In this document: positions 19,641 through 63,331 of the stretch, piece after piece
Layout of the letters: each line of letters begins with the position of its first letter
Numbering within the stretch: position 1 is the first letter of the stretch
NCBI GenBank assembly: GCA_965225805.1
Contig: OZ245327.1
Span: 1,604,603 to 1,668,602, forward strand
From: Longimicrobiales bacterium
GTDB lineage: Bacteria; Gemmatimonadota; Gemmatimonadetes; Longimicrobiales; Gaopeijiaceae
DNA: 64,000 nucleotides
Direction: 5' to 3'
The notes under the pieces: generated by a model
Told to the model about the DNA's origin: nothing
The model's database searches: none
What the model saw: only the letters and a program-made list of their open reading frames with translations
Program-made: the position numbers and the translations under genes

Positions 19641-19671
19641 CTTTCGATTCCTCCGATTGATGGACTGCACG

Positions 19672-19687
19672 ATCTGCGCAACGGAAT
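19672..19687 (-). promoter_or_regulatory. conserved 16-mer GCAGATCGTGCAGTCC upstream of the integrase
   Basis: Plus strand reads GGACTGCACGATCTGC, 32 nt from ATG 19640. Confidence 0.4.
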
Positions 19688-44108: not shown

Positions 44109-44159
44109 CTCCGGCGGCTTCGTTTCGTGCGTGCCATCGTTCGATTCCTCTCGATTGAT

Positions 44160-46641: not shown

Positions 46642-49600
46642 ATGCTCTCCAACGACGACATCAGATTCGGGAATACGAGAGGGCGTCCCGTGCGTTTCTT
46701 CCGCGTCCAAGTTAGCTGGGACGGCGGACAGACCTTTGTGCCGGCGTTGGTCATGAGGGGGGATGTCGGGGACGGGCAAGATAGGAACAAGCGCCCCTTC
46801 ACGGTGGCCTGGGCGGCGACGAGCGAGCTTGAGCGTCGTGTGGTGGCTGCCCTCGGGCGCGTGGAGCATGGGTACTCAGCCAAGGACACCAAGAACGCAC
46901 TGAGGGGGCTCCTGAGGCACATTCCGCGCGATTACGTTCCAACCGATTCGCGGGTTCCCGAAGATCTGGAAAAACGAATTGCCGAGTCACCCTGGCGGCT
47001 GGAAAACCGGTACGGTCCCTTGAAGGCGTGGGAGCAAGAGGCCGACTCAGCTGCGCTACGGCGGGCCGTGATGACGGACAGGGCCGACGTGCCGGGCAAA
47101 GACCGTCTCCTCAGCCTAGTGCGATCAAGGTATCCGGGTTGGCTCGGGTTTAGCGACCCACGTTTCGACGGGGGGCTGTACGACGAGGTTCAATACAAAC
47201 TGGAGACCGTTGCGAAGGCTAAGGAACTCCTCTCCAAGCAAGCGCTCAGGAGCCTGATCGACGCTGGCGACCATGGAGAGATGATCGAGCGGCTCAAGGT
47301 CATCGGACGGGACACCAATCTCCTCTTCCGGCCCTACAGCCCCGGCGGGGATCTGGACTTGCTCTATCACGCAGGCCTGGAGCACCGCGTTTTCTGCGAG
47401 GCATTTCTGAGTCTCCTGCACGGCGACGACGATGCCCCCCACCGCCTCGATCGGTACTCCGATCAGGTCAGGTCCATGGGTTTACCTCCGAACGTTAACC
47501 GATGGGCCATGCCCACCTACTTCCTCTTCTTCCTCTATCCGAACGAAGAGGTCCTCATCAAGCCCGGAACGGTTCGCACGCTCTTGGACCTGGGAGGGTG
47601 GGGTGGAAAGCTCGGGGTTGAGCCGTCGGGAGAGGAGTACGTCCGGGTCCGCACTGCCTACTCTGACCTACGGGAAGCGCTTGAAAAGCATGAGCCGCGA
47701 CACATGATTGATGTCCAGGGCTTCGCTTGGGTCGCGGTGCAGGAAGCGAAAGAGAGGGCCAAAGCGGCCAAGCGGGCGCGCGAGACGGGAGACGAGCAGG
47801 ATCCCCGCATCGACCGGGCGATGGAGGAGTTCGAGCGGGAAGCCGATGCCCACGACCTGATCAGGCAGCAGAAGCTACTTGAACAAGCTCAGGTTCGTTT
47901 CCGCGAGATCTTCGGAACCGTTTCGAAGATCAAGTCGCTCTCCCCGGATGGTTTCTTCGATCTCTTCAATGAACTCGACGCACGCAACAGCCGATCGACT
48001 GGGCTCTTCCGCCTCGGACTTAGCTTTCCGAAGAATCGGAACACCCAGGCTTACCGTGACTTGGAGGACGATCTCCCAACCTTCCGAAGAGCACTCGTGG
48101 AGCTTCTTTATGGTGCCGGGTCCGAGGCCGAGAGTCTCGACCGCATGTGGGAGATCGGACGCGTGCGTGGACGCGTGCGAAACTACATCACGGAATCACT
48201 CATAATGCCCAGCGCCCTACTCTTCCTCCAGGATCCAACCAAATGGTCTTCCGTCATGAAGATGGAGGTCAAGGAGAAGAAGGTGGCGCTAGCGGGTATC
48301 GCTCCCGTGTTGGCCGACGATGCGTCGCTCGGCGAGCGCTTCGTCGCCTTGGAGCGCGCCCTGATCCAGCTGCCCCCCAAGTACGGTAGGAATCACTGGA
48401 CTCCGATGACCATTTCGGCGTTCTACTTCAACCAGGACGTCGAGCGCCACTTCGATGGTCCGCCTCGTCCGAAGCCCCGCCCTAGCCCTCGGTCTCTCAC
48501 GTCCCTGATCCAATCCCTCGAAGACTGCGGACTCCGTTTCTCGCGCGAAACCGTCGCCAACTATGTCCTCGCGTTACAAACCAAGCAGTTCGCGATCTTG
48601 ACGGGCGTTTCCGGTACCGGAAAGACCTCGCTCGCAATCGAGGTCGCGAGATACTTCGGGTTACGGGCCGAAGATCCTGACGCGCTATCATCGAAGAACG
48701 CGGCGGACAGCGGCGATGGCCACTATACGGTCGTCCCCGTGCGGCCCGATTGGGTCGACAACCGTGGCTTGCTCGGGTACTACAATCCGCTGACGAACGA
48801 CTATTCGCCGACTCCCGTCCTCCGCCTTCTCCTCAGGGCGCGCGCGGAAAGGAAGCGTGCCCAGGAAGAGGAACGGAAGCCTTCGCCGTTCTTCGTCGTC
48901 CTCGACGAGATGAATCTCGCCCGTGTGGAACACTACTTCTCGGACTTTCTCTCGGCGATGGAGTCGGGAGAAGCGGTGCCGCTTCACCACGACCCCTCCG
49001 TCGAGCGCCGTGAGATGCAAGCGAGCGGTTCCAGCCGCAGTGACGCCGATGCGTCTGTGCCCATCCCCATGACGCTCAAGGTCCCGGACAACGTCTTCTT
49101 CACCGGCACGGTCAACGTGGACGAGACCACATACATGTTCAGCCCCAAAGTGCTCGACCGGGCCTTTACCTGCGAACTGAACGAGGTGGACCTGCGAAGC
49201 TACGAGAGCGGCCGCGGCGACGATGGTCCGAACGAGCTGACGTTGGACGCGCTCCGCCCGCTTGGCCGCTCCCATCGGGGAGAGCCGTCCGAGGTCCAGG
49301 GGAAGCGGTCTCAAAGCGGGTGGAAACCCAATCGGCACGACTGGCTGGAGTTCTGCAAGCTCTCGGGTGGCCGGTTCCGCGACCGGCTCTTGGAACTCCA
49401 CGGAGTCCTCGAAGGGGAGCATCGCCACTTCGGGTACCGCGTTGCAAACGAAATCGCACGCTTCGTACTCCTCGCACACGCGCAGTCAAGCAACAAAGAT
49501 ATCGCGGTCGAGGCCGCCTTCGATCTGGCAGTCTTGCAAAAGGTGCTGCCGAAGTTCCACGGAACGCAGCAGGAGTTGGAGCCGCTCCTCCGGCGGCTCC

Positions 49601-49896
49601 TCGGTTTCGCTGTGGCAGGTGGGGTCGTGGCCGGTGCCTCGGGGGATGAGCCAAGACTCGACGAGTGGCTGGTGAAGAAGGGCCGTCTGCGGGCCAGGGC
49701 CGCGAGAGTTGAGATCCCCGAAGCAGAGAGCGAGGGAACGACGGACCTGGAATCGCCCGAATCGGTGGGCGACGCTCCTGAGCGTAAGACTGAGGACTCC
49801 GCGGTGCGTGCTCCCGTCCTGCCCCGAACCGGGGCGAAGATCTGGAGGATGTTGCGTCGACTCGAACAGCGGGGCTTCACGTCCTTCGTCGAGTGA
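46642..49896 (+). CDS. McrB-like AAA+ (AAA_5) NTPase with an N-terminal extension of about 640 aa
   Basis: FAILTGVSGTGKTSLA (Walker A), FFVVLDEMNLARVEHYFSDFLS (Walker B and the McrB-type MNLA block), FFTGTVNVDETTYMFSPKVLDRAF. The N-terminal 640 aa are unassigned. Confidence 0.8.
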   Translation: MLSNDDIRFGNTRGRPVRFFRVQVSWDGGQTFVPALVMRGDVGDGQDRNKRPFTVAWAATSELERRVVAALGRVEHGYSAKDTKNALRGLLRHIPRDYVPTDSRVPEDLEKRIAESPWRLENRYGPLKAWEQEADSAALRRAVMTDRADVPGKDRLLSLVRSRYPGWLGFSDPRFDGGLYDEVQYKLETVAKAKELLSKQALRSLIDAGDHGEMIERLKVIGRDTNLLFRPYSPGGDLDLLYHAGLEHRVFCEAFLSLLHGDDDAPHRLDRYSDQVRSMGLPPNVNRWAMPTYFLFFLYPNEEVLIKPGTVRTLLDLGGWGGKLGVEPSGEEYVRVRTAYSDLREALEKHEPRHMIDVQGFAWVAVQEAKERAKAAKRARETGDEQDPRIDRAMEEFEREADAHDLIRQQKLLEQAQVRFREIFGTVSKIKSLSPDGFFDLFNELDARNSRSTGLFRLGLSFPKNRNTQAYRDLEDDLPTFRRALVELLYGAGSEAESLDRMWEIGRVRGRVRNYITESLIMPSALLFLQDPTKWSSVMKMEVKEKKVALAGIAPVLADDASLGERFVALERALIQLPPKYGRNHWTPMTISAFYFNQDVERHFDGPPRPKPRPSPRSLTSLIQSLEDCGLRFSRETVANYVLALQTKQFAILTGVSGTGKTSLAIEVARYFGLRAEDPDALSSKNAADSGDGHYTVVPVRPDWVDNRGLLGYYNPLTNDYSPTPVLRLLLRARAERKRAQEEERKPSPFFVVLDEMNLARVEHYFSDFLSAMESGEAVPLHHDPSVERREMQASGSSRSDADASVPIPMTLKVPDNVFFTGTVNVDETTYMFSPKVLDRAFTCELNEVDLRSYESGRGDDGPNELTLDALRPLGRSHRGEPSEVQGKRSQSGWKPNRHDWLEFCKLSGGRFRDRLLELHGVLEGEHRHFGYRVANEIARFVLLAHAQSSNKDIAVEAAFDLAVLQKVLPKFHGTQQELEPLLRRLLGFAVAGGVVAGASGDEPRLDEWLVKKGRLRARAARVEIPEAESEGTTDLESPESVGDAPERKTEDSAVRAPVLPRTGAKIWRMLRRLEQRGFTSFVE

Positions 49897-51650
49897 TCGC
49901 CCACGCCTACTCCACCGGCAACATCGCCGTCCGCCGGTGGGATGCCGGTCCGGACGGACCAGAACATGCTGGCCCCGTTCCCCAGCGGTTGCAGACCGAA
50001 TGGAAGTGGGTCGTCGAGGCACCGGAGAAAGCGCTGGACGACATGGCGCACGCGTTGCCAAGAACTGCGTTCACCCGACCCGCGAACAGAGTGCTCATCC
50101 TGGACTTGGTCAACTCGGTAGGCATCCTCGACCTTCCGCACATCGGGCAGGTGGAGCTCGTAACGGGGAAGTTCCACGAGGACGACTTCGAGGCGATGCT
50201 TCGAGACATCACCGAATGGTCGGCCGCTCTGCCTTTCTCAGCCGATCAGCCCGCTTCGTTCCGCTACGCCAACAGTAGGGTACTCCGTGACGAGATCCTC
50301 TACCATACCTTCGTCTATCTTCGCCACGTCCTCTCCGACCGCGCTCCCCGATCGTCCCGTTTGATGCCTGCGCTAAAGAGGATTCACATGGAGCCCCACC
50401 GAATCTGGCTCACGGATCGCCACGAGGTGCGGATCGAGACCGCCTCCCGGGTCGACTCGCGTACCCTCATAGACCTGATTGCGCGGGGCGGACGACCGGT
50501 TTCCGAGGCGTCCCTGTCGCCGAAGGGAAGAGCGCTGGCCGAGCGGTTGGGCATGCGACTCCCCGAAGTGGTCACGGAACGGAGGATCAGGGCCACGACC
50601 GATACCCAGGAGAACCGGTTCGTGAAAGCCTTTGTCCACCAAGCCACCGGGATCATCGCGCGGATCCGGTCGGCGACCGAGGCTCGCCGCCCGACATCGT
50701 TCAGCACGCGCGTGCTGCGAGACTGCGAGCGAATGACGGAGTCGTTGACCCCGGTCGTTCGGCATCCGATGTGGAAGGAGGTGGGACGGATGACCAGAAT
50801 CCCGTTCTCTTCCACCGTCCTGCAACGCCATCGCGGATACCGGCGGGTCCTCAGGCATTGGGCGAGAATCAGGCTGGCCCCGCGAATCCCGCTGAACCGG
50901 GACGAGATGCGCGACATGCTGGAACTCAAGAACATCGCGCTCCTTTACGAACTGTGGACGTTCCATCGCCTCGCGTCCTGCATCAATCAGTTGGTAGGAC
51001 CCCCCAAACAAACCGGTCGGATGATCGGCGATGACTTCCAAGTGGATCTCGCAAGGGGAGAAGCGTTCGAGTGGGCTTCTGGAATCCGGTTGGCGTACAA
51101 CCCCACGTTTTCTCGCCGGGCCGCTCATGTCCCGAATCGATCCTATTCCGTAGAACTGCGACCCGACGCTGCCCTCTGGATTCCGAGTGGAGTGAACCGC
51201 GGAATCCATCTCTTCGATGCCAAGTTTCGGCTTCGCTCCCTCTCCGAAGCCGGGGCGACGGAATCCTCGGGCGGTGCCACAACCGAGAAAACCGACGAGA
51301 GGAGAGGCAACTTCAAGCGAGCCGACATCTACAAGATGCACACCTACAGGGATGCGATTCAGGGCGCCCGCTCCGTGTGGATTCTCTATCCGGGCAGCGA
51401 GTTCCGTTTCTTCACCGCCTCCGGTAGAGGCCGAGTCACGTCCCCAGGAGGGTTGCCGGACGCGCTACTGGGGGTGGGAGCGATCCCGCTGGTGCCGAGT
51501 CGCGAAAACGGGGCGGCGAGCGTTCGGTCGGGCGTAAGCGGGCCGCTGGAAGCAACGCTTCGGCGACTGTTGGCGTCAGGGAAAGACCGAGGCTCTCCCG
51601 AGTGGCACTCGTCTTCTACGACGCACTCGAAGGTGCCGACATCGGTGTAG
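49893..51650 (+). CDS. McrC-like / DUF2357-type PD-(D/E)xK nuclease partner
   Basis: GTGA overlap with the upstream gene. IHLFDAKFRL...ADIYKMHTYRDAI...VWILYPG resembles the McrC nuclease core (D...DAK...Y.m..Y). Confidence 0.7.
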   Translation: MIAHAYSTGNIAVRRWDAGPDGPEHAGPVPQRLQTEWKWVVEAPEKALDDMAHALPRTAFTRPANRVLILDLVNSVGILDLPHIGQVELVTGKFHEDDFEAMLRDITEWSAALPFSADQPASFRYANSRVLRDEILYHTFVYLRHVLSDRAPRSSRLMPALKRIHMEPHRIWLTDRHEVRIETASRVDSRTLIDLIARGGRPVSEASLSPKGRALAERLGMRLPEVVTERRIRATTDTQENRFVKAFVHQATGIIARIRSATEARRPTSFSTRVLRDCERMTESLTPVVRHPMWKEVGRMTRIPFSSTVLQRHRGYRRVLRHWARIRLAPRIPLNRDEMRDMLELKNIALLYELWTFHRLASCINQLVGPPKQTGRMIGDDFQVDLARGEAFEWASGIRLAYNPTFSRRAAHVPNRSYSVELRPDAALWIPSGVNRGIHLFDAKFRLRSLSEAGATESSGGATTEKTDERRGNFKRADIYKMHTYRDAIQGARSVWILYPGSEFRFFTASGRGRVTSPGGLPDALLGVGAIPLVPSRENGAASVRSGVSGPLEATLRRLLASGKDRGSPEWHSSSTTHSKVPTSV

Positions 51651-51842: not shown

Positions 51843-52097
51843 AGCCAGCATACCCTGTACCCTTTGCAAATGCTTCGCGTTAGATCGAAAGATTCTAACA
51901 ACAGCGGCAGGCTACCAGGCCGGGAGTAACCACAGCATACCTGTGCCACCGAGCACCTACGGGGGAGTTGTACCCCGGCCCGGAAGCCGCGATGGATGCC
52001 CAGTGGGGAGTTTGCGCCATCGAGCGCCAGTACAGGGATTGGCGGGCATCGCGGCAGAGCCTTCGCTGTCAAGTGACACCTTCACACGGGAGGAAGC
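51843..52097 (+). ncRNA. candidate IS110 bridge-RNA locus (left non-coding end)
   Basis: 255-nt non-coding leader, matching the decayed copy at 35991..36245 wherever compared. In IS110-group elements this end is known to encode the guide (bridge) RNA. No fold was computed here. Confidence 0.3.
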
Positions 52098-53348
52098 ATG
52101 GTAGAACCCAAGGCTTGGTTCGCCGGCGTGGACTGGGCGTCGGAAGCGCATCACGTCTGCGTAGTCGGCGGCGACGGCTCGAAGCGGGCGGAACGCATCT
52201 TCCGCCACGGAGGCGCGGGGCTGGCGGAGATGGCCGAGTGGATCGCCGCCAAGTCCGGAGGGTCCGCCCCGGACATTCCGGTGGCGATCGAAGTCCCGCA
52301 CGGGCCGGTCGTCGAGAGCCTCATGGACCGGGGGTTCGCGGTCTACGCGATAAACCCGAAGCAGCTCGACCGGTTCCGCGACCGCTTCTCGCCGGCCGGC
52401 GCCAAGGACGACAGCCTCGATGCCCGCGTCCTCGCCGACGCGCTGAGGACCGATCTTCGCCACTTCCGGAGGATCGACCCGGTCGACCCGACCGTCATCG
52501 AACTCAGGGCATGGTCGCGGATCGCCGAGGAGCTCACCCGGGACCGCGTTCGCCTGTCGAACCGCGTGCGAGAGCAGCTGTGGCGCTACTACCCGCAGAT
52601 CCTCGAAGCGGTCGGAAGCGTGGTCGAGCCCTGGTTCCTCGACCTCTGGGCCAAGGTTCCGACGCCCGCGAAGGCCCGGCGGGTCCAGCGCCGGACCCTC
52701 GAGAGCCTGCTCAAGCGCCACAGGATCCGGCGGATCACGGCCGACCAACTCGTCGAGATCCTCCGCGCCCCGGCCATCGCCGTCGCACCCGGTACCACCG
52801 AGGCCGCGGTGGCCCACATCCGGAGCGCTTCCGAACGCCTCCGCCTCATACAGCGCCAACTCGCCGACGCCAAGCGGAAGATCGCCCGCCTGATCGACGT
52901 CTTGGCCGGCAGCGAGGACTCCGGCTCCGGCCAACCCGGCGGGCAGCGCGACGTGACGGTCCTCTCCTCCCTGTCCGGAGTCGGCCAGACCGTCCTCGCC
53001 ACGCTGCTCGCCGAGGCCCCCCAAGCGCTGGCGCGCCGGGACTACAAGGCGCTGCGGTGCATGTGCGGCGTAGCGCCGGTCACACGGCGATCCGGCAAGT
53101 ACAAGCTCGTCGTGCGCCGCATGGCCGCCCACGCCCGCCTTCGCGACGCAGTGTACCACTGGGCACGGGTCGCGGTCCAGCTCGATCCCGTCAGCAAGGC
53201 CAAGTACGCCGCCCTTCGCGGGCGCGGCCACGGCCATGCGCGCGCCTTGCGTTCCGTCGCGGACCGCCTGCTCGCAGTCGCCTGCGCCATGCTCAGAACC
53301 CAGACCTGCTACCGGCCTCCACAGCCAGCGGAGGATCATGCGGCCTGA
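52098..53348 (+). CDS. IS110-family transposase
   Basis: 416 aa: FAGVDWASEAHHVCVV (DEDD N-terminus), INPKQLDRFRDRFSPAGAKDD, LSSLSGVGQTVLATLLAE, CGVAPVTRRSGK. Confidence 0.85.
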   Translation: MVEPKAWFAGVDWASEAHHVCVVGGDGSKRAERIFRHGGAGLAEMAEWIAAKSGGSAPDIPVAIEVPHGPVVESLMDRGFAVYAINPKQLDRFRDRFSPAGAKDDSLDARVLADALRTDLRHFRRIDPVDPTVIELRAWSRIAEELTRDRVRLSNRVREQLWRYYPQILEAVGSVVEPWFLDLWAKVPTPAKARRVQRRTLESLLKRHRIRRITADQLVEILRAPAIAVAPGTTEAAVAHIRSASERLRLIQRQLADAKRKIARLIDVLAGSEDSGSGQPGGQRDVTVLSSLSGVGQTVLATLLAEAPQALARRDYKALRCMCGVAPVTRRSGKYKLVVRRMAAHARLRDAVYHWARVAVQLDPVSKAKYAALRGRGHGHARALRSVADRLLAVACAMLRTQTCYRPPQPAEDHAA

Positions 53349-53432
53349 TCTCCCCCCTGGACGCGGGGTTACAGGCCCGCTTCAGGAACCGTTGACTAAT
53401 GGTGGGGAGTCCCACAACGGCAACGGCGCGTC

Positions 53433-53700
53433 ATGAGCGCTGGACGCGCCGTGTGGGTGAAGGTCCGCGTGAGCGACGCGGAGCGTGTGCCGAGTGGCAC
53501 GCCAAGGCGCGCTCGGTGGGCTTGACGCTGTCGGATCTGGTCGTCGGCGGCCACAAGGCGGCTGCCGAGGCGGTCGAGCTCGTCGCCCACCTGGTCGTCA
53601 TCGGGAGAGCGCGCTCCGGGCTCGCCGACCAGCCGGGGCTGATGCAACGCGCCGACACATGGCGGACGGTTCGCCTCGCGGGAGTCCTCTACCAATGATT
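53433..53700 (+). pseudogene. mobC remnant (2-nt insertion plus internal deletion of about 30 codons)
   Basis: MSAGRAVWVKVRVSDAERV then a frameshift (GAGCGTGTGCCGAG versus GAGCGTGCCGAG in copy 1). The next frame reads AEWHAKARSVGLTLSDLVV-GGHKAAAEAVELVAHLVVI. Confidence 0.75.
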
Positions 53701-53882
53701 TGCGCACCTCTGGCGCCGTGGGTCATGGCCGTATACGCCCGCGAAATCGACAAGGGGTGCCGATGCGCACCCCGGCGCCCAAGACGTGCGCACCGGCGGG
53801 GCGACGGAAGCTGCTGTGCGCAAAGGTCTTGCGCCTCGCTGTCCAGGGCGGCCGGGGCCGCAGGGCTCACTCGGACGGGGCT

Positions 53883-53998
53883 GGGAGCGACCCCCCAGTC
53901 CGAGGGCCTGGTACGGGTTCGGGGCCGGGCGCGTTTGCGCACCCCTGCCCCCGTCCCCTGGGGTCGCTCCCGATCCATCAATCCCTGTGGGAAGGCTA
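53883..53998 (+). repeat. structured repeat M1, copy 4 (about 270 nt upstream of dcm)
   Basis: GGGAGCGACCCC (53883)...CCTGGTACGG...GGGGTCGCTCCC (53960) GATCCATCAATCCCTGTGGGAAGGC. Confidence 0.8.
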
Positions 53999-54268
53999 TC
54001 GGGCAACCGCGGAAGACAGCGTTCTTCGGACTTCGCGGTGTTTGCGGGGGCGGCCGCCATTGGGGCTCCAGCCTTGCTCGGCTCGAAACCCGAAGAATCA
54101 ACCGAAGGCCGTTCGCAGCCGAGTCCGGTGACGGCAACATTCGAGCTTGACCCAAGTCCCGTCTCCAGTTCCCTTTGGATCGATAGGCTTCCGCGATCTT
54201 CCACACACTAGCGCTGTAGCCGCGTCGTCCATGAATCCACCCACGATCCCCACACGAACGGCGAAGCC

Positions 54269-55342
54269 GTGCCATACCAGCGAGTGAAGGTATTCGACTT
54301 CTTCTCTGGTTGCGGCGGGGCCAGCCGTGGTTTCCAGGACGCCGGAATGGACATCGTGTTCGCTCTCGATTGGGACGCGGACGCCGAGCGGACCTTCCAA
54401 CGGAATTTCCCGTCATCCGCCTTTGAGTCCAAGGACATTCGGGAGGTGGAGGAGGACTCCGTCCACAAGCTTGTGGTCAAACACCGGCCGCATCCTGTTC
54501 TCTTCTGCGGATGTGCCCCTTGCCAGCCGTTCACCAAACAGAACACCATCCGTCCCGAACCCGAGGAGGATGAACGGGTGCCGTTGCTTCTCGATTTCCT
54601 GCGGTTCATCCGAAGGTGCGAGCCCGACATCGTGTTCGTCGAGAATGTCCCGGGTATCCAGAACGTATCTCCTGACTCCGAGCCGCTCGCCGGGTTTCTT
54701 CAGGGATTGAAGGACGCTGGATACCCCGGTCCGGCACGCGCTTCGGTACCCTTGAGGCGGTACGGAGTCCCCCAGAGCCGCCGCAGATTTCTCCTGCTCG
54801 CGAGTCGACACGGACCGATCGAACTCCCACCCGAGACCCACGGTCCGGGAACGCCCAACCCGGAATTCGCCACGGTGCGCGACTGGATCGGAGACCTTCC
54901 CAAGATCGACGCCGGCCAGAGCCACCCGGAGATTCCCAACCACCGGGCGGCCGGCCTGTCCTCGCTCAACGCGAAGCGCATCAGGGCAACCCCGGAGGGC
55001 GGTGGCAACAGGGATTGGTTGGAGGAGGATCTTCGGCTGGAGTGCCACAAGAAGGCCACCGGATACAGTGATGCCTACGGTCGTATGTCGTGGGACCGGC
55101 CCGCCTCCGGTCTCACGACACGATGCATCAGCTATTCGAACGGCCGATTCGGCCACCCCGACCAGGATCGTGCGATCAGCGTCCGGGAAGCCGCGTGCCT
55201 TCAGACATTCCCGATGGGTTTTCGCTTCTCCGGTAGCCTGAACTCGATGGCTCGGCAGATCGGCAACGCGGTGCCGGTGCGTTTGGCGACCATTGTTGGA
55301 GAGCACGTCGCCAGACATCTGGTCGCGGCAGGCGCGACCTGA
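54269..55342 (+). CDS. dcm: DNA (cytosine-5)-methyltransferase
   Basis: FDFFSGCGGASRGF (motif I), GCAPCQPFT (PC catalytic motif IV), ENVPG (VI), QSRRRFLLLAS (VIII), QIGNAVPV (X). The start is GTG 54269 or GTG 54284. Confidence 0.9.
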   Translation: MPYQRVKVFDFFSGCGGASRGFQDAGMDIVFALDWDADAERTFQRNFPSSAFESKDIREVEEDSVHKLVVKHRPHPVLFCGCAPCQPFTKQNTIRPEPEEDERVPLLLDFLRFIRRCEPDIVFVENVPGIQNVSPDSEPLAGFLQGLKDAGYPGPARASVPLRRYGVPQSRRRFLLLASRHGPIELPPETHGPGTPNPEFATVRDWIGDLPKIDAGQSHPEIPNHRAAGLSSLNAKRIRATPEGGGNRDWLEEDLRLECHKKATGYSDAYGRMSWDRPASGLTTRCISYSNGRFGHPDQDRAISVREAACLQTFPMGFRFSGSLNSMARQIGNAVPVRLATIVGEHVARHLVAAGAT

Positions 55343-58317
55343 TGGCGATGGACGTAAGCTTCAAGGCCCGGGCCAGGACGCTGGACATGCTGGGGAGACA
55401 GCAGATCGCCGGCATACCCACCGCCATCAGCGAGCTTTTCAAGAACGCGTACGACGCAGACGCCGAGCGGGTGGAGGTGGACTATTACCGCAGCAACAGA
55501 CTCTTTGTGCTGCGGGACGATGGTTTCGGGATGGAAGCGGAGGAATTCGTCGAGCGATGGCTCACCATCGCTACCGAGACCAGCGTCAAGCGGAAGCGCG
55601 CGGAAAGGCGGCTCCCTCGGTCGGAGAAGCGCACCAGGCCCGTACTGGGGGAGAAGGGAATCGGTCGCCTCGCCATCGCTACAATCGCTCCTCAGGTGCT
55701 GGTGCTCACCCGCGCCCTTCGCGACGGCGTCTTGTCCGATCTCACAGCCGCCTTCCTGAACTGGAGGCTCTTCGAGTGCCCCCGGCTCGACCTCCAGGAT
55801 ATCCGGATTCCGCTTCGCACGTTTCCAGGCGACAGTTTGCCCGACAGCGAGGACGTGGCAGACATGGTCGGCTATTTCCAGAGCCGGAACGCACACCTTC
55901 GGGAGCAAGTCGACCCGAGCGAATGGGACCTGATCGAGACCGACCTCGCGCGGTTCGCGGTCGATCCTCTGGACATGGCCGATTTTTTGGGTGAGCCGAC
56001 GCTTCTCGCCGGGGGTCACGGTACGCACTTCTACCTTCTCCCCGCGTCCTCCAACCTAGCCTATGACATCGCTGGGGATACAGATTCCGATGTCGCGCCG
56101 CCGATCCAGAGAGCACTGCTGGGATTCACCACCCCCTCAATGGCGGGCCGTGCCGAACCGGTCATCCGCACCGTCTTTCGGGACCACAGCACTGACGGAA
56201 TCTGCGAAGACCTCATCGGCGGACACGAGTTCTTCACTCCCTACGATTACGAGAACGCGGATCACCAGGTCTGGGGACGATTCGACGATTACGGCCAGTT
56301 CAAGGGCAACGTCTCCGTCTACGCAGAGACCGTGCACGACCATGTGATCAACTGGAGCGGAGGCAAGGGACGGAAAACGGCTTGCGGTCCCTTCCGCATC
56401 AGGTTCGCCGCAATCGAAGGCGCGGCCAGATATTCGACCCTTCCGCCCGCGGAACACGGTCGCATGCTTGAGAAGACCAGAAGAATCGGTGGCTTGTACA
56501 TCTATCGGGACGGCGTGCGCATTCAACCCTACGGAAACACGGACTACGACTGGCTGGAGATCGAGCTGCGCCGGACGAAGAGCGCGTCGTACTACTACTT
56601 CTCGTACCGGCAGATGTTCGGAATGGTCGAAATCGATTCCACCCACAACAGAGGTCTTCAAGAAAAAGCGGGTCGTGAAGGCTTTCGCGCCAACAAAGCC
56701 TACCGTGATCTGCGCGACATTCTGAAGAGTTTTCTCGTCCAGATCGCCGCCGACTTCTTCCGCGAGGAGGGAGTTCAAGGCGAGAGGTTTGCGAGTCGCA
56801 AGCGGGAGTTGGACGAGACCGAGCGACATCGGCGTGCGCGAGCCAGGCAGGTCACCGCCAAGCGCGGCAAGTTCAAGAAGGACTTGGCCGCGTTCTTCGA
56901 CCGAATGGAGATGGAGAAACCGCTTGAGAGAGTCATGGCACTGGGACTGGAGGCCGAGTCGCGTGTAAGGGAGGCCGGCCGCGATCCGGACCGCGCGAGG
57001 GCGGCCAGGCGGATCATCAAGATCGAACGCGATGCAAGGAGAGACCTCGGGGATCTGGAGGCCCGCTACCGGGTTTCCAAGCCGAGGATCGGCATGACCC
57101 GGGCCTTGCAGAAGGAGTGGAGAGACTATCGGGAGGCGTTCGAGGATCTCGTCGGCAGCGTGCGGGACATCCGCGACTCGATTGAGAGTGTCGTCACGAA
57201 GGAGGTGACCAAAGCGGGGGTTGACGTGAGTGCCAGAGAGCGCATGGAATCGGCTCTCACCGAGATCGGACAATCTGCGAGGCGCGACACGAAGGCGGGC
57301 CGGAGAGAAGTGGAAAAGGTGGCCGAGGAGATCTGGACCGGCACGCGAACGATAGCGAGCCAATGTGTGCGAGAGGTCGAGTCGACGATTCGCGCCGTGA
57401 TGGCCGACTTCGCTCGGCGTGATCTTCAGGGCATGGACGACCAGCGCCTGATCGCGGAACGTTCGGGCCTGGAGGCGCGGATCCGCGAGGCACTGGAGAA
57501 CGCCACCCTCACCCTCGACTCCTTGCGCTCGCAACTGGCGGCCATCGACTTGAAGGGCAAGTCCTCTCTCGTGGATCAGCTCGCGGCGGTGGAACAGAGC
57601 AACGTCACCCTAAAGGAACAAGCGGCGGCCGACCTCCAGCTCGCCCAGCTCGGCATGGCGATCGAGATCATCAGCCACGAATTCGGGGCCGCCATCCGAT
57701 CCGTCCGATCGGGGCTTCGTAGCCTCAGGAGATGGGCCGACGTGAACCAGGAACTGATGTCGCTGTACCAGGGCATCCGCGGCAGCTTCGACCATCTCGA
57801 CGGTTACCTGACTCTCTTCACGCCCCTCCAGAGAAGGCTTTACAGAAAGGCGGTGGACATTCGCGGCTGGGAGATCCACGAGTTCCTGGCCAACCTGTTC
57901 GGCCAGCGGCTGGCCAGACACAACGTCGAACTGACCAGGACCGAGGCGTTCGCCAGCGCCGCCGTTCGAAGCTATCCATCATCCTTCTACCCGGTGTTCG
58001 TCAATCTCGTGGACAATGCGATCTATTGGCTTTCCGGCCAGAACGAGCGCCTTGAACGACGAATCGAGCTTGATGCGTCGGGCAACAGGTTCCGCATCTC
58101 GGACTCGGGTCCCGGGATCCACACCCGGGATTGCGACGACATCTTCGACATCGGGTTCACTCGCAAGCCGGGAGGTCGCGGCATGGGGTTGCATATCGCG
58201 AGGGCAACGCTGCGCGAGATTGGCTATGACCTGAACCTTGAAGCGAGCGAGCCGGGCCATGGGACGACATTCCTGATCGCACCGATCGAGGACGAGGACG
58301 AAGAGACCGATGCCTAG
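55342..58317 (+). CDS. double GHKL protein: N-terminal MORC/Hsp90-like ATPase head + coiled coil + C-terminal histidine-kinase core (DHp + CA)
   Basis: The ATG overlaps the dcm TGA (TGATG). Head: ELFKNAYDA, DDGFGM, GEKGIGRLA. Tail: IEIISHEF (H-box, His codon 57676..57678), NLVDNAIYW (N), DSGPGI (G1), GGRGMGLHIA (G2). No TM or PAS/HAMP seen. Confidence 0.75.
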   Translation: MAMDVSFKARARTLDMLGRQQIAGIPTAISELFKNAYDADAERVEVDYYRSNRLFVLRDDGFGMEAEEFVERWLTIATETSVKRKRAERRLPRSEKRTRPVLGEKGIGRLAIATIAPQVLVLTRALRDGVLSDLTAAFLNWRLFECPRLDLQDIRIPLRTFPGDSLPDSEDVADMVGYFQSRNAHLREQVDPSEWDLIETDLARFAVDPLDMADFLGEPTLLAGGHGTHFYLLPASSNLAYDIAGDTDSDVAPPIQRALLGFTTPSMAGRAEPVIRTVFRDHSTDGICEDLIGGHEFFTPYDYENADHQVWGRFDDYGQFKGNVSVYAETVHDHVINWSGGKGRKTACGPFRIRFAAIEGAARYSTLPPAEHGRMLEKTRRIGGLYIYRDGVRIQPYGNTDYDWLEIELRRTKSASYYYFSYRQMFGMVEIDSTHNRGLQEKAGREGFRANKAYRDLRDILKSFLVQIAADFFREEGVQGERFASRKRELDETERHRRARARQVTAKRGKFKKDLAAFFDRMEMEKPLERVMALGLEAESRVREAGRDPDRARAARRIIKIERDARRDLGDLEARYRVSKPRIGMTRALQKEWRDYREAFEDLVGSVRDIRDSIESVVTKEVTKAGVDVSARERMESALTEIGQSARRDTKAGRREVEKVAEEIWTGTRTIASQCVREVESTIRAVMADFARRDLQGMDDQRLIAERSGLEARIREALENATLTLDSLRSQLAAIDLKGKSSLVDQLAAVEQSNVTLKEQAAADLQLAQLGMAIEIISHEFGAAIRSVRSGLRSLRRWADVNQELMSLYQGIRGSFDHLDGYLTLFTPLQRRLYRKAVDIRGWEIHEFLANLFGQRLARHNVELTRTEAFASAAVRSYPSSFYPVFVNLVDNAIYWLSGQNERLERRIELDASGNRFRISDSGPGIHTRDCDDIFDIGFTRKPGGRGMGLHIARATLREIGYDLNLEASEPGHGTTFLIAPIEDEDEETDA

Positions 58318-59905
58318 CAATGGCTTTACCGAGCACTGTCGAGAGATCGCCCGGCGATTCCTCCTGACAGCGATCGTCGTTGATGACGAACTCTCGGTTC
58401 CCGCGGACCCACCCGTCCACGGCGATCTGACGGCTCCAGAGCGGAGCGCACCGGTGCGACGCGGGCCAACATCGGTGAACCCCCAGCTCCATCCCCGCCG
58501 ACCGCTCAAAATCGACCCGATCACATGGTCTTTCGCCCGCCAAGGCATGGTTTGCGGCGTGATGTCACCCGAAGGAAGGCAAGACGACCTTGGCGCCCTC
58601 GCCAATGCCGTCGCTCGTGCGGACATCGTCATTCTGGACTGGCGGCTGAGCCGATCTAGCGGTGCGAACGCGTTGCCGTTGTTGAAGCGAATCCTGACAG
58701 AGGATCAGCCGAACCGGCTTCGCCTGATCGCTGTCTATACGGGAGAACCCGACCACGAGGCGATTCGCGAAAAGATCGCAGACGGTCTGAACAGCCTCGA
58801 TACCTCCGATCAGGCGGTATCGGCAGGAGATAGCCACCGTGGTCGGATCGACTTCCGGGCCTGTCGTATCGTCGTATACGGGAAACCCGGTTCTCTTGCC
58901 CCCGAGCGGAGGAGAGTCAGGGAAACAGCGTTGGCCGACCGGCTCATCGGCGATTTCGCGGAGATGGTCGAGGGGCTATTGCCCAGCTTGGTTCTGACGG
59001 CATTGGCTGCGGTCCGAGACAACGTGTACCGTGTACTGGAGCGCTTCGGGCGGGACTTGGATCCGGCCTTCCTGGTACACCGCGCCTGTCTCCCACAGCC
59101 TCCAGAATCGGAGCAGCACATCGTCGAACAGATCGCCAGCGAACTCCACGGGATCATGGACGATGTGGTAGGCAGGACGAGTCCGGCGGGAATCGAGGCG
59201 ATCGAGCGGTGGATCGGCGATCGCTTCGGGAATGACGATGTCGTGTTCGGTCCGAAACACAAGGCGGCCACGCCCATCGTCCTTAAGATGCTGAAGGATG
59301 GACTGAAGGAGCAACCCGGACCTCTAGGCCTCGGAAAGTACCACCTTCTCTCGCATGGGCTTTCGGGCGGCCTTGCCATGAGCCATGAGCTTGATCGCCG
59401 TCTCGCGTCGGCGATGGACTTGAGACAGGTGGTTGCGGACACTGAGCGGCAATTGTCGATGGGGACGGTTGTCCGCCAGACCGGAGACGAGGGTTCAGCG
59501 CTCCTGTGCGTCACACCGAGATGCGACAGCGTCCGATTGACCGGTAAGTCATCTTTCCTCTTTCTTCCTCTGTCAACTGCGAAGGAAAACACGCCGCAGG
59601 TCGTGGTCCCGACTGACGACCGCGGTTTCCGCCGCATGACCATAATCATGAATCCATCGCAGTGGCGTATTGAGGACTTCGAGCCCGAACCAGCCCGGCA
59701 GTGCGTCCTCGCACGCCGCAGTGGGCCGGATCAGCCTTTCACCTTCAAGGATGTCGCTGGCGCAGCATACCGTTGGGTGGGAGAGCTGAAGGCGGAAGTC
59801 GCGCAGTCCATTGCCCAAGGGATCGCGGAGAGAATGTCCCGGATGCCCCTAAACAGGTCGGAATGGCTCAGGCGGTCGGCGCGCGTTGGAGAGCGAGCAA
59901 GGTAA
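58310..59905 (+). CDS. REC (receiver) domain protein with an unassigned C-terminal region of about 340 aa
   Basis: 8-nt overlap with the upstream gene. LLTAIVVDDE (acidic pocket), ADIVILDWRL (phospho-acceptor Asp codon 58637..58639), LIAVYTGEP, IVVYGKPG (conserved Lys-Pro). I recognise no motif in residues about 190-531. Confidence 0.65.
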   Translation: MPSNGFTEHCREIARRFLLTAIVVDDELSVPADPPVHGDLTAPERSAPVRRGPTSVNPQLHPRRPLKIDPITWSFARQGMVCGVMSPEGRQDDLGALANAVARADIVILDWRLSRSSGANALPLLKRILTEDQPNRLRLIAVYTGEPDHEAIREKIADGLNSLDTSDQAVSAGDSHRGRIDFRACRIVVYGKPGSLAPERRRVRETALADRLIGDFAEMVEGLLPSLVLTALAAVRDNVYRVLERFGRDLDPAFLVHRACLPQPPESEQHIVEQIASELHGIMDDVVGRTSPAGIEAIERWIGDRFGNDDVVFGPKHKAATPIVLKMLKDGLKEQPGPLGLGKYHLLSHGLSGGLAMSHELDRRLASAMDLRQVVADTERQLSMGTVVRQTGDEGSALLCVTPRCDSVRLTGKSSFLFLPLSTAKENTPQVVVPTDDRGFRRMTIIMNPSQWRIEDFEPEPARQCVLARRSGPDQPFTFKDVAGAAYRWVGELKAEVAQSIAQGIAERMSRMPLNRSEWLRRSARVGERAR

Positions 59906-59923
59906 TTTGCTGGCAGGTGCCAC

Positions 59924-60367
59924 TCACACCTCCGATCCCTTGACGGCCTCCCCTTCCTCCGGTCGCAGGAACCCGGCAATCCGTCTGGCCACCACCGCGA
60001 CATCCGTCGTCTCGCACTCCCAGATCACCATTACCCGCCAGCCGAGGTCGTGCAGGGCGGTCTCGTTGCGCCGGTCGCGGATCACGTTCCCTTTGAACTT
60101 GTCCTCCCAGAACTGCACACGGGTCTTGGGGCTTGAGGCGTACTTGCAGCCGGGATGCCGATGCCAGAAACATCCATGCACCATGATGACGGCCCGATGG
60201 CGGGGGAGCACGATGTCCGGGGAACCTGGAAGACGCTTGCAGTGCAGGCGGAAGCGGAAGCCGAGTCTGTGAGCGATCCGGCGGACGATCATCTCCGGCA
60301 TGGTGTCGCGGCTGCGGATCCGGGACATCATCTCACTTCGTGTTAGGCTGTCGACGATGTCGGTCAT
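59924..60367 (-). CDS. vsr: very short patch repair endonuclease
   Basis: RSEMMSRIRSRDTMPEMIVRRIAHRLGFRFRLHCKRLPGSPDIVLPRHRAVIMVHGCFWHRH...FWEDKFKGNVIRDRRN...GWRVMVIWECE. Convergent with the REC gene, stops 18 nt apart. Confidence 0.9.
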   Translation of the reverse strand: MTDIVDSLTRSEMMSRIRSRDTMPEMIVRRIAHRLGFRFRLHCKRLPGSPDIVLPRHRAVIMVHGCFWHRHPGCKYASSPKTRVQFWEDKFKGNVIRDRRNETALHDLGWRVMVIWECETTDVAVVARRIAGFLRPEEGEAVKGSEV

Positions 60368-60608
60368 TGTTCGTGACGCCGGCAGACGGGTAATGTTCGC
60401 TCATGCGCGAGGAACGGGAAATTACTCAGACCGGCGTTCACCAGCCAACCGAGCCACCGCGTACGGGGTTGCGTTGGAGTCGTCTCCGCCCGTCGCTCAT
60501 GGTCTCCGCGCCTCGGCATGTGCACCTTGCTGGCATCCGGTGCTTACCTGCGCCGGCACAGCTGGCACACAGTCGGGTCGCGTGTGGGTAAGGGGGGCTC
60601 ACAAGCAA

Positions 60609-60906: not shown

Positions 60907-61895
60907 TCAAATCCCGCCCCCGGAGAAGCGGCTCGAAACCCATACCGAATAGCCGTGGATCATTCCTCCGGGGAGGCCCGATCGGAGCAGAGCCCTCATC
61001 TCAACGAGGCGGTGAAGGCAGCCGTTGAGACCGCCCAATTCCTTGACCGCCGCGTCGTCCATTCCCCGGATGGCATTCTCGACGCGCGCAATCTCGCGCC
61101 GGACGGCTGCGATGGTCTTGGGCTGCTGGTTGGGCTCTTGGGCGGTGGCGGCGCCGACCCAGTTTCCCAGGATCGTCCGTGCGCGTTCGAGTTCCCTCCG
61201 ACCGCCTGCGACCCTGGCGACCTCGACCGACAGGCTCTGCTCCCTCAGCGCTTCCCATAGCCCATGGTGCCGATCCCGCCACGAGCGGAGCGCGGTCGAG
61301 GTGTCGTAGCCGGGATCGGCGGGCACGAACACGGCGCGGCTGGAGTCCAGCGCCACGGGCATCCCGCGGGGAAGTACCGCCGCGCGCCCCCGGCGGCGCC
61401 CCGGTAGATCCGGACGGGCAGGAGCGAGCGACTGATGTCGAGTACCTCGAACGCGGCGACCTTCTCCGCCTCGGTGGGCAGCCAGGGCAGGCCGGTGTGC
61501 TCGATCACGTAGTCGAAGGAGAGCAGGCGGCGCATGGCCACCTCGGGCGAGGTGATCCTCCGGTGGCGCACACCTTCGGCACCCAGTGCGCGGTAGATGC
61601 CGCGCGCGCAGATCCGGCAGACCTTCAGGTCTCCGACCATCTCCTCGGCGGCCAGCCTTCGGTCCCTCAGGCCCTGCACGAACCGGAGCGCCGTGAAGCG
61701 GCTGACCCCGAGCCACGCAGAGAACTGCTTGCGGGTGAACACGCCTCCGTGCAGGCTCGCCAAGGCGATCCACTCGGCGCGGCGGCCCGTCAAGCCGAAC
61801 GGCTCCAGCGCCTTCTCGCGCCCCTGTAGATGGTCGATCACCAAGGCCGCCGTTGGTCGAGGGCTTTGCTGTACATGAGGGTTCCCAATTCCCAC
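60907..61895 (-). pseudogene. winged-helix (replication-relaxation-like?) protein, frameshifted in a C-run near 61368
   Basis: Frame 1 reads ...GVFTRKQFSAWLGVSRFTALRFVQGLRDRRLAAEE...LPVRIYRG...RYFP. Frame 2 continues RGMPVALDSSRAVFVPADPGYDTSTALRSWRDRHHGLWEAL... The family call is tentative. Confidence 0.4.
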
Positions 61896-62131
61896 GGGCG
61901 CACCCTGGTTCCGTGGTCGGGACCGAGAACCGTGGAGGTTGTCACTGCCGACAGAATCGGAAGAGGGCTTGCGGCGGCGTCAAGTCGCGTATGCGGGCCA
62001 TAGTCCCGAGCCGTCCGGTGCCGTCCCGGACGCGGACCTGCTTCCGGCAGCGCTCCTCCATCGCTTTCGAGAAGCCAACAGCGCGGGTATCGCACTGGTC
62101 AAGCCGCCTTCGTCCAGCGAGATTCCTTCGC

Positions 62132-62147
62132 GCAGATCGTGCAGTCC
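62132..62147 (+). promoter_or_regulatory. conserved 16-mer GCAGATCGTGCAGTCC upstream of the integrase start
   Basis: 18 nt upstream of ATG 62165. Context ...GAGATTCCTTCGCGCAGATCGTGCAGTCCATCAAGAGAGGAATCGAATGATG. Confidence 0.4.
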
Positions 62148-62164
62148 ATCAAGAGAGGAATCGA

Positions 62165-63331
62165 ATGATGGCACGCACGAAACGAAGTCGGCGCTCCTAC
62201 GGCGCTGGCGAATGGGGCCGGAACCGGGTCCGGGTGTTTCCGGATGCCAAGACCGGCATTTTCCAGATCGAGTGGCGAGAGAACGGGCGCAGGCTCACCC
62301 GGTCCCTCAAACACCGCGACTGGTCGCGCGCGAAGCGGCAAGCGGACGAGTTCGCCGCGGGCTTCGCGGGGCCGGGCCTGAACGGCGAGGCCGAAGCCGA
62401 GCCCGAGCCGCTCAAGCTGGGATCGCTTTTTGACATCTACGGCGAAGAGGTGACGCCCACGAAGGGGAGACGGACGCGCCAGCGCGACTTGGTCGCGACC
62501 AGGATGTTCCTCCGCTTCTTCGGACGGGACCGAAGACCCGAAACACTGTCGCAGCGCGACTGGGATCGGTTCATCCGGGAACGGCGCGCGGGCAGGGCCG
62601 GACGCTCGGGCAAGCCCGTAGGCAACCGGACGATCGAATGGGACCTGACGTTCCTGATGACGGTGCTCAACTGGGCCGCAAGGTCAAGGGACGAACACGG
62701 ACGGCTGCTCCTCGACTCCAACCCGCTCAAGGGCCTCAGAAAGCCCAAGGAGAAGAATCCCAACCGGGTCGTCCTCACCGAGGACGAATACTAGGCGCTG
62801 CTCGGGGTTTCCCGGCAGGTCGGCTGGCGGTTCCATGTCGCGCTCGTGCTCGCGCACGAGACCGGGCACCGGATCGGTGCCATCCGCGAGCTCCGTTGGG
62901 ATGACATCGACATCGAGGGCCGCGAGGTCCGGTGGCGCGCGGAGCACGAGAAGACCGGCTACGAACACGTCACGCCCCTGACCGCCGAGGGGGTCGCCGC
63001 CCTGGAGGAGGAACGAAGCAGGAGCGAAGGAACCAAGAATGGCCCGGTGCTGCCGTCGCCGAGGGATGCCACGCAGTGCATGAGCCGCGTTGCCGCCCAC
63101 AAGTGGTGGAAGAAGGCGGAGACCCTCGCGGGACTGGAGCCGAGGCGGGGACGGGGCTGGCACTCGCTCCGTCGCAAGTTCGCTTCCGATCTCATGGACC
63201 TGCCGCTCAAGGTGCTTTGCGAGCTTGGCGGCTGGAAGAAGGCCCAGACGGTGCTGCGCTGCTACCAGCAACCCGACGCGGTACAACTCAGGAAGGCTCT
63301 GGACAACCGCCGCCGCAACGGTCGGGCCTGA
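62165..63331 (+). pseudogene. island integrase with a single in-frame TAG (62792..62794)
   Basis: MMARTKRSRRSYGAGEWGRNRVRV...VVLTEDEY*ALLGVSRQVGWRFHVALVLAHETGHRIGAIRELRW...GWHSLRRKFASDL. Both ORFs (61853..62794 and 62846..63331) are in the same frame. Confidence 0.8.

Follow-up and report, generated by a model that had tools for sequence, protein, structure and literature searches.

A soluble GHKL-headed histidine kinase in a mobile, methylase-linked two-component cassette of a Longimicrobiales bacterium

Bacterial loci in which a two-component system lies beside a cytosine methylase were the source from which Bellieny-Rabelo, Pretorius and Moleleki (2021, PMC8011034) defined two protein families, the histidine kinases HEF_HK (PF19191) and the response-regulator-like Response_reg_2 (PF19192). 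The genes of the two families are 91.6% linked, C5-methylase genes lie upstream of them, and vsr genes adjoin the response-regulator-like gene. The dominant architecture of the kinases, called "group 1" (174 of 222 sequences), consists of HATPase_c_3, HEF_HK and HATPase_c, and the family has been proposed to derive from paraMORC ATPases; that the N-terminal GHKL domain acts as a sensor, possibly of nucleoside triphosphates (NTPs), was offered as speculation (PMC8011034). Here, we analyse a member of this family encoded by a 64,000-nucleotide stretch of DNA (the window) from a Longimicrobiales bacterium of the family Gaopeijiaceae (Gemmatimonadota; assembly GCA_965225805.1, contig OZ245327.1, positions 1,604,603 to 1,668,602 of the forward strand). 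Its kinase gene, at 55342..58317 of the window, shares with group 1 the domain order, the solubility, the adjacent Response_reg_2 gene, the upstream C5-methylase and the vsr gene beside the response-regulator-like gene, and differs from it in no architectural respect. The design is therefore a catalogued one, of which this kinase is a new member. A first, sequence-only reading of the window had known of no characterised kinase built in this way; our literature search likewise retrieved no experiment on one, but the architecture itself had already been described.

Several other systems resemble this locus in part. Detocs (DtcA/DtcB/DtcC; Rousset et al. 2023), whose kinase-to-receiver-effector relay is experimentally anti-phage, is alike in outline, with a cytoplasmic kinase that carries a non-canonical sensor, phosphotransfer to a receiver whose fused effector does not bind DNA, and residence in defence islands. 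However, the Detocs sensor is a TPR domain and not a GHKL ATPase, its stand-alone buffer receiver DtcB has no conserved counterpart beside the genes described here in 80 related loci, its effector is a PNP nucleosidase, unlike the protein found here, and it lacks the obligatory link to a DNA methylase; a PADLOC search matched none of DtcA, DtcB and DtcC in the present genes. The MORC and paraMORC proteins, of which the paraMORC GHKL proteins work in restriction-modification systems (Iyer, Abhiman and Aravind 2008, PMC2292703), share the N-terminal GHKL motifs I-IV followed by an alpha/beta region, the association with cytosine methylases and Vsr, and a sporadic, mobile distribution, but end in a nuclease, TIR domain or helicase where this protein has a histidine kinase. 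The nearest sequence relatives of the first ~115 residues are the restriction enzymes BbrUII and HgiDII (NF050001; PADLOC REase_II PDLC03419), which also lie beside C5-methylases. Only their GHKL N-terminus is matched (82.1 bits against a cut-off of 550, profile positions 8-115 of 659), and their nuclease part is replaced here by a helical linker and a kinase core. In addition, defence by a Shedu protein that joins GHKL and nuclease parts depends on the glutamate of its ATPase, and an unvalidated "HATPase + REC" system predicted by a machine-learning screen may or may not belong to the HEF_HK family. MADS was considered as a related methylation-associated system and rejected, as the sole histidine kinase in the MADS paper is a flanking marker gene.

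The dcm-kinase-receiver cassette

The kinase gene is the second of three genes on the plus strand. The first, dcm (54269..55342), encodes a C-5 cytosine DNA methyltransferase (Pfam DNA_methylase, E 2.5e-49; NCBIfam dcm, 9.7e-37), and its TGA stop codon and the start codon of the kinase gene share nucleotides in the sequence TGATG. The third (58310..59905) encodes a Response_reg_2 protein of 531 amino acids (PF19192, E 4e-33, 115.5 bits against a cut-off of 27) and shares 8 nucleotides with the end of the kinase gene. With these overlaps, the three genes are translationally coupled; a promoter and terminator scan of the operon gave nothing above shuffled background. A vsr gene for a very-short-patch repair endonuclease (59924..60367, minus strand; Pfam Vsr, 4.2e-27; TIGR00632, 6.8e-38), an accessory of the cytosine methylase, converges on the three. 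The partner gene, dcm and vsr together define the system, and all three had been missed by the earlier reading, which looked at the kinase frame alone.

This arrangement is highly conserved. A scan of one genome per species located relatives of the kinase in at least 502 species genomes from many phyla, and 80 of these loci were kept for comparison. The dcm, kinase and Response_reg_2 genes occur together in 77 of the 80, and the dcm that immediately precedes the kinase there is orthologous. The phyla concerned include Acidobacteriota, Gemmatimonadota, Verrucomicrobiota, Bacteroidota, Proteobacteria, Cyanobacteria and Chlorobi. The pairwise identities of the three proteins correlate with one another (Spearman 0.86-0.87). 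Dcm is the most conserved of them and is never swapped for an unrelated methylase, and the Response_reg_2 protein diverges fastest. A vsr gene lies within 7 kb in 48 loci (upstream on the same strand in 32, downstream in 16). Beyond these genes, clustering of the flanking open reading frames of the 80 loci revealed no further conserved gene and no recognisable restriction nuclease; after these, type I hsdM, present in 20 loci, and an hsdR-like helicase, in 14, are the commonest. These results are evidence that the three genes form a closed, co-evolving unit without a nuclease. Relative to PMC8011034, the strict co-divergence with one dcm lineage and the absence of a conserved nuclease neighbour are new, as are the fold-level descriptions of the linker and of the C-terminal part of the Response_reg_2 protein given below and the Response_reg_2 genes disrupted by insertion sequences (IS).

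Such disruptions were found in four of the 80 loci. An IS element interrupts the Response_reg_2 gene in three and the kinase gene, which is twice as long, in one (split genes at L016 9944..13432, L041 9953..12783, L066 9947..12721 and L078 3944..8728). By eye, the transposases inside the Response_reg_2 genes look IS4-like, ISAs1-like and IS630-like, and dcm was not seen split in any locus. Small as these numbers are, they are compatible with a costly effector.

The cassette is also mobile. An 8.7-kb block (51853..60566) comprising an IS110 transposase, a small open reading frame, dcm, the kinase, the Response_reg_2 gene and vsr recurs at 98.4% identity (blastn) in an independent 145-kb metagenome contig (L001, 6511..15225), which encodes a 100% identical kinase and has different flanks. 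The transposase gene beside the cassette (52098..53348) has IS110-family domains in Pfam. The high identity combined with unrelated flanks points to recent movement of the block as a unit. Furthermore, the cassette has a lower G+C content (~0.62) than most of the window (0.65-0.70). Taken with the conservation described above, it is well supported that the protein is the sensor kinase of a horizontally mobile three-gene cassette (dcm, kinase and Response_reg_2, usually with vsr) of the HEF_HK/Response_reg_2 family.

Domain organisation of the kinase

The kinase gene is a single uninterrupted frame of 991 amino acids. Three Pfam families match it above their cut-offs, namely HATPase_c_3 at residues 27-125 (E 1e-15, 58.4 bits), HEF_HK at residues 769-835 (E 4.1e-27, 94.9 bits against a gathering cut-off of 24.1) and HATPase_c (PF02518) at residues 882-979 (E 3.2e-18, 66.6 bits). 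Based on an AlphaFold model (mean predicted local distance difference test score, pLDDT, 70.8), the boundaries were drawn as GHKL domain ~1-260, middle region 261-477, helical linker 478-742, DHp hairpin 743-829 and CA domain 838-991, a soluble paraMORC-like GHKL / helical linker / HEF_HK layout of the group 1 type. The sequence-only reading had seen a MutL/MORC/Hsp90-class GHKL head and a complete kinase core in one polypeptide, and Pfam and PDB matches to both parts bear this out; the motifs that it quoted are all present in the order it gave. It was also right to find no membrane segment and no classical sensor domain: the top 19-residue Kyte-Doolittle mean is 1.29, and a Pfam scan of the kinase matched no PAS, HAMP or GAF domain. 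Its sizes, in contrast, needed revision. The head, taken to be ~130 residues, reaches ~260, with motif IV at G227-T228, and the supposed ~350-residue middle, ~300-residue helical stretch and ~210-residue tail become ~261-477, ~478-742 (~265 residues) and a kinase core of ~250 residues (743-991).

The fused form is widespread. A word-indexed search returned 4437 proteins at E <= 1e-5. The best 120 homologues are 63-100% identical to the kinase, and nearly all full-length ones carry the same three Pfam domains. Residues 1-480, searched without filters against 1.84 billion cluster representatives (one per 50%-identity cluster), matched 2519 clusters at E <= 1e-10, of which 396 reach E <= 1e-30. 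The best 150 representatives were examined for full-length architecture; 107 of them have at least 940 residues, and a local hmmsearch located the kinase core in all 107; the shorter ones stop inside the protein and resemble fragments from contig ends. Because every full-length representative holds both head and kinase core, the fused form is the norm, and the survey of fused against split genes proposed earlier accordingly yielded no split form among these 150. The closest relative in the per-species scan is encoded by an Acidobacteriota metagenome-assembled genome (84% identity), and, among database homologues whose source supplies a name, those nearest to it come from Gemmatimonadota. RefSeq labels such kinases "ATP-binding protein" and their partners "response regulator receiver domain". 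Truncated relatives (residues ~345-979) were noted in the E. coli prophage-type records AJ304858.2 (2741..4534) and LN997803.1 (36556..38343), annotated 'histidin kinase-like protein' inside a 'remnant integrative element', and residues 386-980 match PHROG 8137 (2e-110). Versions that lack the head are thus also in circulation in DNA associated with phages.

The GHKL (Bergerat-fold) ATPase domain occupies residues 1-260 (55342..56121, plus strand). Its motif I is E31/N35/D38 (within ELFKNAYDA, residues 31-39), motif II D59-G61-G63 (DDGFGM, 59-64), motif III G103-G108 (GEKGIGRLA, 103-111) and motif IV G227-T228. Conservation was computed over 108 representatives of separate 50%-identity clusters, and the residues of motifs I-IV are at least 90% conserved, with a mean column identity of 0.6-0.77 across the head. 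The first ~115 residues are closest to the GHKL N-terminus of the BbrUII/HgiDII restriction enzymes (NCBIfam, 3.2e-23). A family profile matches GRP94/HtpG N-domains (4e-4) and MutL (6.5e-3) in the PDB over residues 26-126; with the full-length family profile, MutL and Hsp90 were matched in the GHKL part only. The head is modelled with a pLDDT of mostly 80-90. In both ATP sites of the kinase, this one and that of the CA domain, the key catalytic residues are at least 90% conserved among the 108 representatives, and since these residues are retained, both sites look catalytically competent from their sequences.

The middle region (residues 261-477; 56122..56772, plus strand) is a candidate transducer domain, judged from secondary structure, conservation and fold alignments, with an alpha/beta region predicted at residues 276-432. 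It holds the most conserved block of the whole kinase, G384-F448 (GLYIYRDGVRIQPYG ... EKAGREGF), in which the pattern GLYIYRDG.R..PYG ... EKAGREGF is at least 90% conserved; residues 383-398 read GGLYIYRDGVRIQPYG. We take this block to resemble the "YxYVNGR" strand of MutL. K442 or R445 may be the basic residue that contacts ATP. The whole-protein model aligns with the N and M domains of HtpG (1y4u_A) at 4.7e-6 over 527 columns, spanning residues ~1-500, and, in a viral structure library, with phage topoisomerase II ATPase subunits (9.6e-5 over 531 columns), Hsp83 (7e-5) and unnamed proteins over ~480-580 columns. These fold searches used the whole-protein model; in the PDB, kinase cores filled the list and HtpG stands at rank 49, and the viral library was the more informative of the two. 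Given the alignments with HtpG, Hsp83 and topoisomerase II, the model suggests that the N-terminal half is a GHKL-plus-transducer-type module at the fold level, in which an S5-type domain is a candidate only. The search for an S5 fold recommended earlier thus came out divided: fold alignments suggest one, whereas a profile of residues 262-478 built from 34 diverse members retrieved no PDB chain by sequence. The MORC S5 motif GhXhhpXXRhl fits G384-LYIYRDGV-R393-I (GLYIYRDGVRI) only with a one-residue insertion before the arginine, and the head is therefore filed as paraMORC-like and not as strict MORC. That the first GHKL module is itself the input domain, as the sequence-only reading proposed, is plausible; the conserved Glu31, Asn35 and motifs II-IV, its sensor position and the ~500-column alignment with Hsp90 and topoisomerase II all fit this role.

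The linker (residues 478-742; 56773..57567, plus strand) is Arg/Glu-rich and amphipathic, and AlphaFold predicts six helices of 20-62 residues each (478-525, 527-546, 551-575, 587-624, 631-692 and 700-733). It is the least conserved part of the kinase, with a mean column identity of 0.24-0.38. The region had been expected to be coiled-coil. It is indeed all-helical and amphipathic, but its hydrophobic periodicity peaks at 3.56-3.68, against 3.5 for heptads, which rules out a canonical heptad coiled coil; helix 1 of the DHp domain peaks at 3.44.

The kinase core begins with the DHp (HEF_HK) helical hairpin (residues 743-829; 57568..57828, plus strand), assigned from the PF19191 match and an alignment with the H-box of ZraS. 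IISHEF occupies residues 776-781, where His779, which aligns with the ZraS H-box, is the candidate phospho-acceptor and the acidic E780 is its neighbour; H779, E780 and F781 are at least 90% conserved. In the motif H-E-F-G-A, the Thr/Asn phosphatase residue at H+4 is absent, a feature of PF19191 proteins also reported in a preprint (10.64898/2026.02.27.708494). The CA (HATPase_c) ATP-binding domain follows (residues 838-991; 57853..58314, plus strand) with its N box N888/D891/N892 (NLVDNAIYW, 888-896), G1 box D921-G923-G925 (DSGPGI, 921-926), F box F935 and G2 box G945-G947-G949 (GGRGMGLHIA, 944-953). N888, D891, N892, G923, F935, G945, G947 and G949 are at least 90% conserved. Histidine-kinase cores of solved structure (ZraS 9jfj, 8.7e-9 by sequence and 5e-8 by fold) align with the C-terminal 230 residues and are also the top structural matches of the kinase model in the PDB. 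The core is thus similar to HisKA-type kinases such as ZraS, HK853 and CpxA in its DHp hairpin with an H-E dyad and its N, G1, F and G2 boxes. It differs from them in lacking a membrane anchor, PAS, HAMP or GAF domains and the Thr/Asn at H+4, and in having a second, catalytically intact GHKL module as its putative input. By analogy only, the protein also recalls the Hsp90/HtpG and MutL clamps, which combine a constitutive C-terminal dimer interface with ATP-gated dimerisation of the N-terminal GHKL domains; here, however, the C-terminal dimeriser would be the DHp domain of a kinase.

The partner protein and its genomic setting

The Response_reg_2 protein consists of a receiver and an unusual C-terminal part. 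The receiver spans residues 1-200 and contains D25-D26, the acceptor D110, T144 and K192, which are invariant or nearly so, including in 73 orthologues of 25-75% identity. Residues ~201-375 form a conserved helical region, and residues 376-531 a beta-rich domain followed by C-terminal helices, with nine strands within 386-493 (AlphaFold, mean pLDDT 67.9; 70-90 at residues 380-510). Residues ~219-290 (58964..59179 of the window; EGLLPSLVLTALAAVR...LDPAFLxHRACLP) are the best-conserved segment outside the receiver. They are hydrophobic, with a 19-residue Kyte-Doolittle mean of 1.59, just below the usual transmembrane threshold, and have a pLDDT below 50. Cys82, Cys260, Cys400 and Cys405 are conserved and spread across three regions of the protein.

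The C-terminal part is a putative effector. With the whole two-domain model as query, the best fold matches in the PDB are MazF toxins, led by 5co7_C (E 0.019, probability 1.0, TM-score 0.60) and 5hk0_B (TM-score 0.62) and including 6kyt_J and 9ikd_C, all with E above 0.01. A family profile of the protein matched no PDB chain, and lenient Pfam scans of 66 members gave no match to PemK_toxin at E up to 10. As hhalign was negative too, an identity as MazF is not supported by sequence, and the fold resemblance is kept as a weak structural lead. The same 66 members contain no helix-turn-helix or other known DNA-binding output. D406 ... E492-x-K494 is conserved. A PD-(D/E)xK reading of these residues is unlikely, as D406 is 86 residues and six strands away from the pair, and is further disfavoured by an almost all-beta domain and by fold searches that retrieved no nuclease. 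Effector swapping as in Detocs was not seen, the C-terminal region being the same in all 80 loci.

The surroundings of the cassette are rich in mobile and defence-related genes. Upstream, a 1084-residue protein has a match in PADLOC, to the candidate family PDC-M26A (E 4.8e-46), and none in Pfam; its gene overlaps by 4 nucleotides the start of a gene (49893..51650) for a nuclease with DUF2357 and PDDEXK_7 (PD-(D/E)xK) domains. The pair (46642..51650, plus strand) looks like a second, separate candidate defence system. Further away lie a MobA/VirD2-type relaxase (44277..45821, minus strand), full and partial IS110 copies (42713..44111 and 35816..36235) and another integrase (18475..19692). Downstream of the cassette, a tyrosine integrase (62123..63331, plus strand), 82% identical in DNA to the integrase beside the cassette in L001, has an in-frame stop after codon 223 (...LTEDEY*ALLG...) and is probably a pseudogene or a sequencing error; between it and vsr, an open reading frame at 61245..61895 (minus strand) weakly matches the antitoxin-like AbiEi_4 (E 3.5e-4, short of the Pfam cut-off). 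In its right half, the window has the appearance of an integrative mobilisable element or of a patchwork island, and the IS110 elements, integrases, relaxase and PDC-M26A neighbours together define a mobile defence-island setting. A 1560-residue protein (37589..42271, plus strand), unrelated to the kinase, combines Ig-like domains of the Big_2 and Big_1 types with many leucine-rich repeats and a segment resembling Peptidase_M66.

Proposed function and rival explanations

What does such a cassette do? The most likely reading, to which we give an even chance, is that it is a methylation-linked two-component defence module, restriction-like or abortive-infection-like, in which a phosphorelay takes the place of the restriction endonuclease. 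In this scheme, the cytosine methylase would mark the host genome. The kinase would be a constitutive dimer held together by the DHp hairpin, and its GHKL-plus-middle module would bind ATP and dimerise transiently into an Hsp90- or MutL-like clamp, whose state would depend on a nucleic-acid cue, most simply DNA without the methylation of the cassette. Clamp closure would be passed through the helical linker to the DHp domain, the CA domain would phosphorylate His779, and the phosphoryl group would move from His779 to Asp110 of the Response_reg_2 protein. Because its DHp domain has no Thr/Asn phosphatase motif, the kinase may be chiefly a one-way switch. Phosphorylation would then release the C-terminal part of the partner, the helical segment and the beta-rich domain, as an effector whose toxin- or nuclease-type activity would lead to growth arrest or to attack on the invader. 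Vsr would merely repair the T:G mismatches that arise from deamination of 5-methylcytosine. A narrower version, an immune system without a restriction endonuclease in which the clamp reads methylation and the His-Asp relay switches on a receiver-fused toxin of an as yet undescribed, possibly MazF-like family, is tentative and on present evidence somewhat doubtful.

Several findings speak for defence. Conservation across clusters that share less than 50% identity extends to both ATP sites and to the relay residues His, Asp, Thr and Lys; type I restriction-modification genes are frequent neighbours, a PDC-M26A gene is next door, and the head is nearest to the GHKL N-termini of restriction enzymes. 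The coupling, joint occurrence and co-divergence of the three genes, the lack of a conserved nuclease beside them and of a DNA-binding output on the partner, the mobile setting of the cassette and the IS-disrupted Response_reg_2 genes point the same way, as do the precedents of Detocs, of paraMORC proteins in restriction-modification systems and of Shedu. Other points weigh against it. DNA binding, methylation sensing and clamp formation are all carried over from MutL, MORC and Hsp90, and the tight linkage to dcm could equally mean regulation or repair and not discrimination of self from non-self. Within the PADLOC defence library, the Response_reg_2 protein matches no family, and the kinase is matched only through its first ~115-120 residues, which are shared with two type II restriction-enzyme models. 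An S5-type transducer domain is suggested by fold alignments but cannot be shown from sequence, and AlphaFold models the most conserved block, at residues 382-424, with low confidence. As for the effector, the MazF-like fold signal is weak (E 0.02-0.2), hhalign comparisons with MazF, Kid and EndoA gave probabilities below 1% with shallow and deeper alignments alike, and the count of IS disruptions, three in the Response_reg_2 gene against one in the twice-longer kinase gene, is small. Finally, PMC8011034 contains no experiment on the HEF_HK family and our literature search found none.

The first rival is a regulatory two-component system, in which the kinase senses a cytoplasmic cue and the Response_reg_2 protein controls the expression or activity of the methylase or of restriction-modification genes, as speculated in PMC8011034. 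The conserved chemistry of kinase and receiver would fit any two-component system, restriction-modification genes are enriched nearby (in the 80 loci as in PMC8011034), and the genes are induced during plant infection (PMC8011034). However, the 66 partners scanned carry no known DNA-binding output; the sole invariant neighbour is one orthologous dcm and not a variable set of restriction-modification systems; and a self-contained cassette that moves between phyla is unusual for a regulator of host genes. We regard this explanation as unlikely.

A methylation-independent abortive-infection switch is likewise improbable. Here, the head would sense the nucleotide pool or a phage protein, and dcm would be a hitch-hiker or an addiction partner. 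Detocs, which detects infection through a sensor that does not read DNA and then triggers an effector fused to a receiver, offers a precedent; NTP sensing has been proposed for the family (PMC8011034), and no DNA-binding surface has been identified. This explanation nevertheless leaves unaccounted for why a single dcm lineage, co-diverging with the other two genes and the most conserved of the three, is present in 77 of the 80 loci. The head, moreover, has its closest kin among enzymes that act on DNA, namely restriction enzymes, MutL and topoisomerase II ATPase modules.

Less probable still is that the kinase is a MutL-like accessory for very-short-patch repair, whose head detects T:G mismatches and signals or recruits repair. 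Its head does match MutL N-terminal domains, dcm and vsr flank the kinase and Response_reg_2 genes, and a functional MutL-Vsr interaction is established, MutL stimulating Vsr in E. coli (cited in PMC2292703). Yet in 32 of the 80 loci there is no vsr within 7 kb, whereas dcm, kinase and Response_reg_2 are nearly universal; a phosphorelay to a non-DNA-binding protein is without precedent in mismatch repair; and the mobile, defence-island context better fits conflict systems. That an assembly or sequencing error fused two genes, for which nothing speaks beyond the unusual architecture, can safely be dismissed, since at least 502 species genomes, 120 close homologues and all 107 full-length representatives share this architecture and an independent contig encodes an identical protein; with a GHKL fold at the head and kinase homology in the tail, both halves are what the sequence-only reading took them to be.

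The value of the kinase lies in its putative function and not in the discovery of a design that is already catalogued. What is added here is evidence for a closed, co-evolving unit that lacks a nuclease, support from fold comparisons for a sensor of the GHKL-plus-transducer type, and the first, weak structural lead on the effector. How MORC/MutL-type modules turn nucleotide-dependent dimerisation into a downstream signal is debated for eukaryotic MORCs, and the kinase is a tractable model for MORC-type signalling in which the expected output, autophosphorylation, is easily measured. The C-terminal region of the partner, without recognisable relatives, is a new effector candidate. If the proposal is true, the cassette would add to classical restriction and BREX/DISARM-type systems a third link between DNA modification and immunity, in which the decision between self and non-self is made by an ATP-gated GHKL clamp and carried out through phosphotransfer in at least 502 species-level genomes. 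The kinase would then be an epigenetic sensor kinase, the first case in which DNA methylation status is transduced by two-component chemistry.

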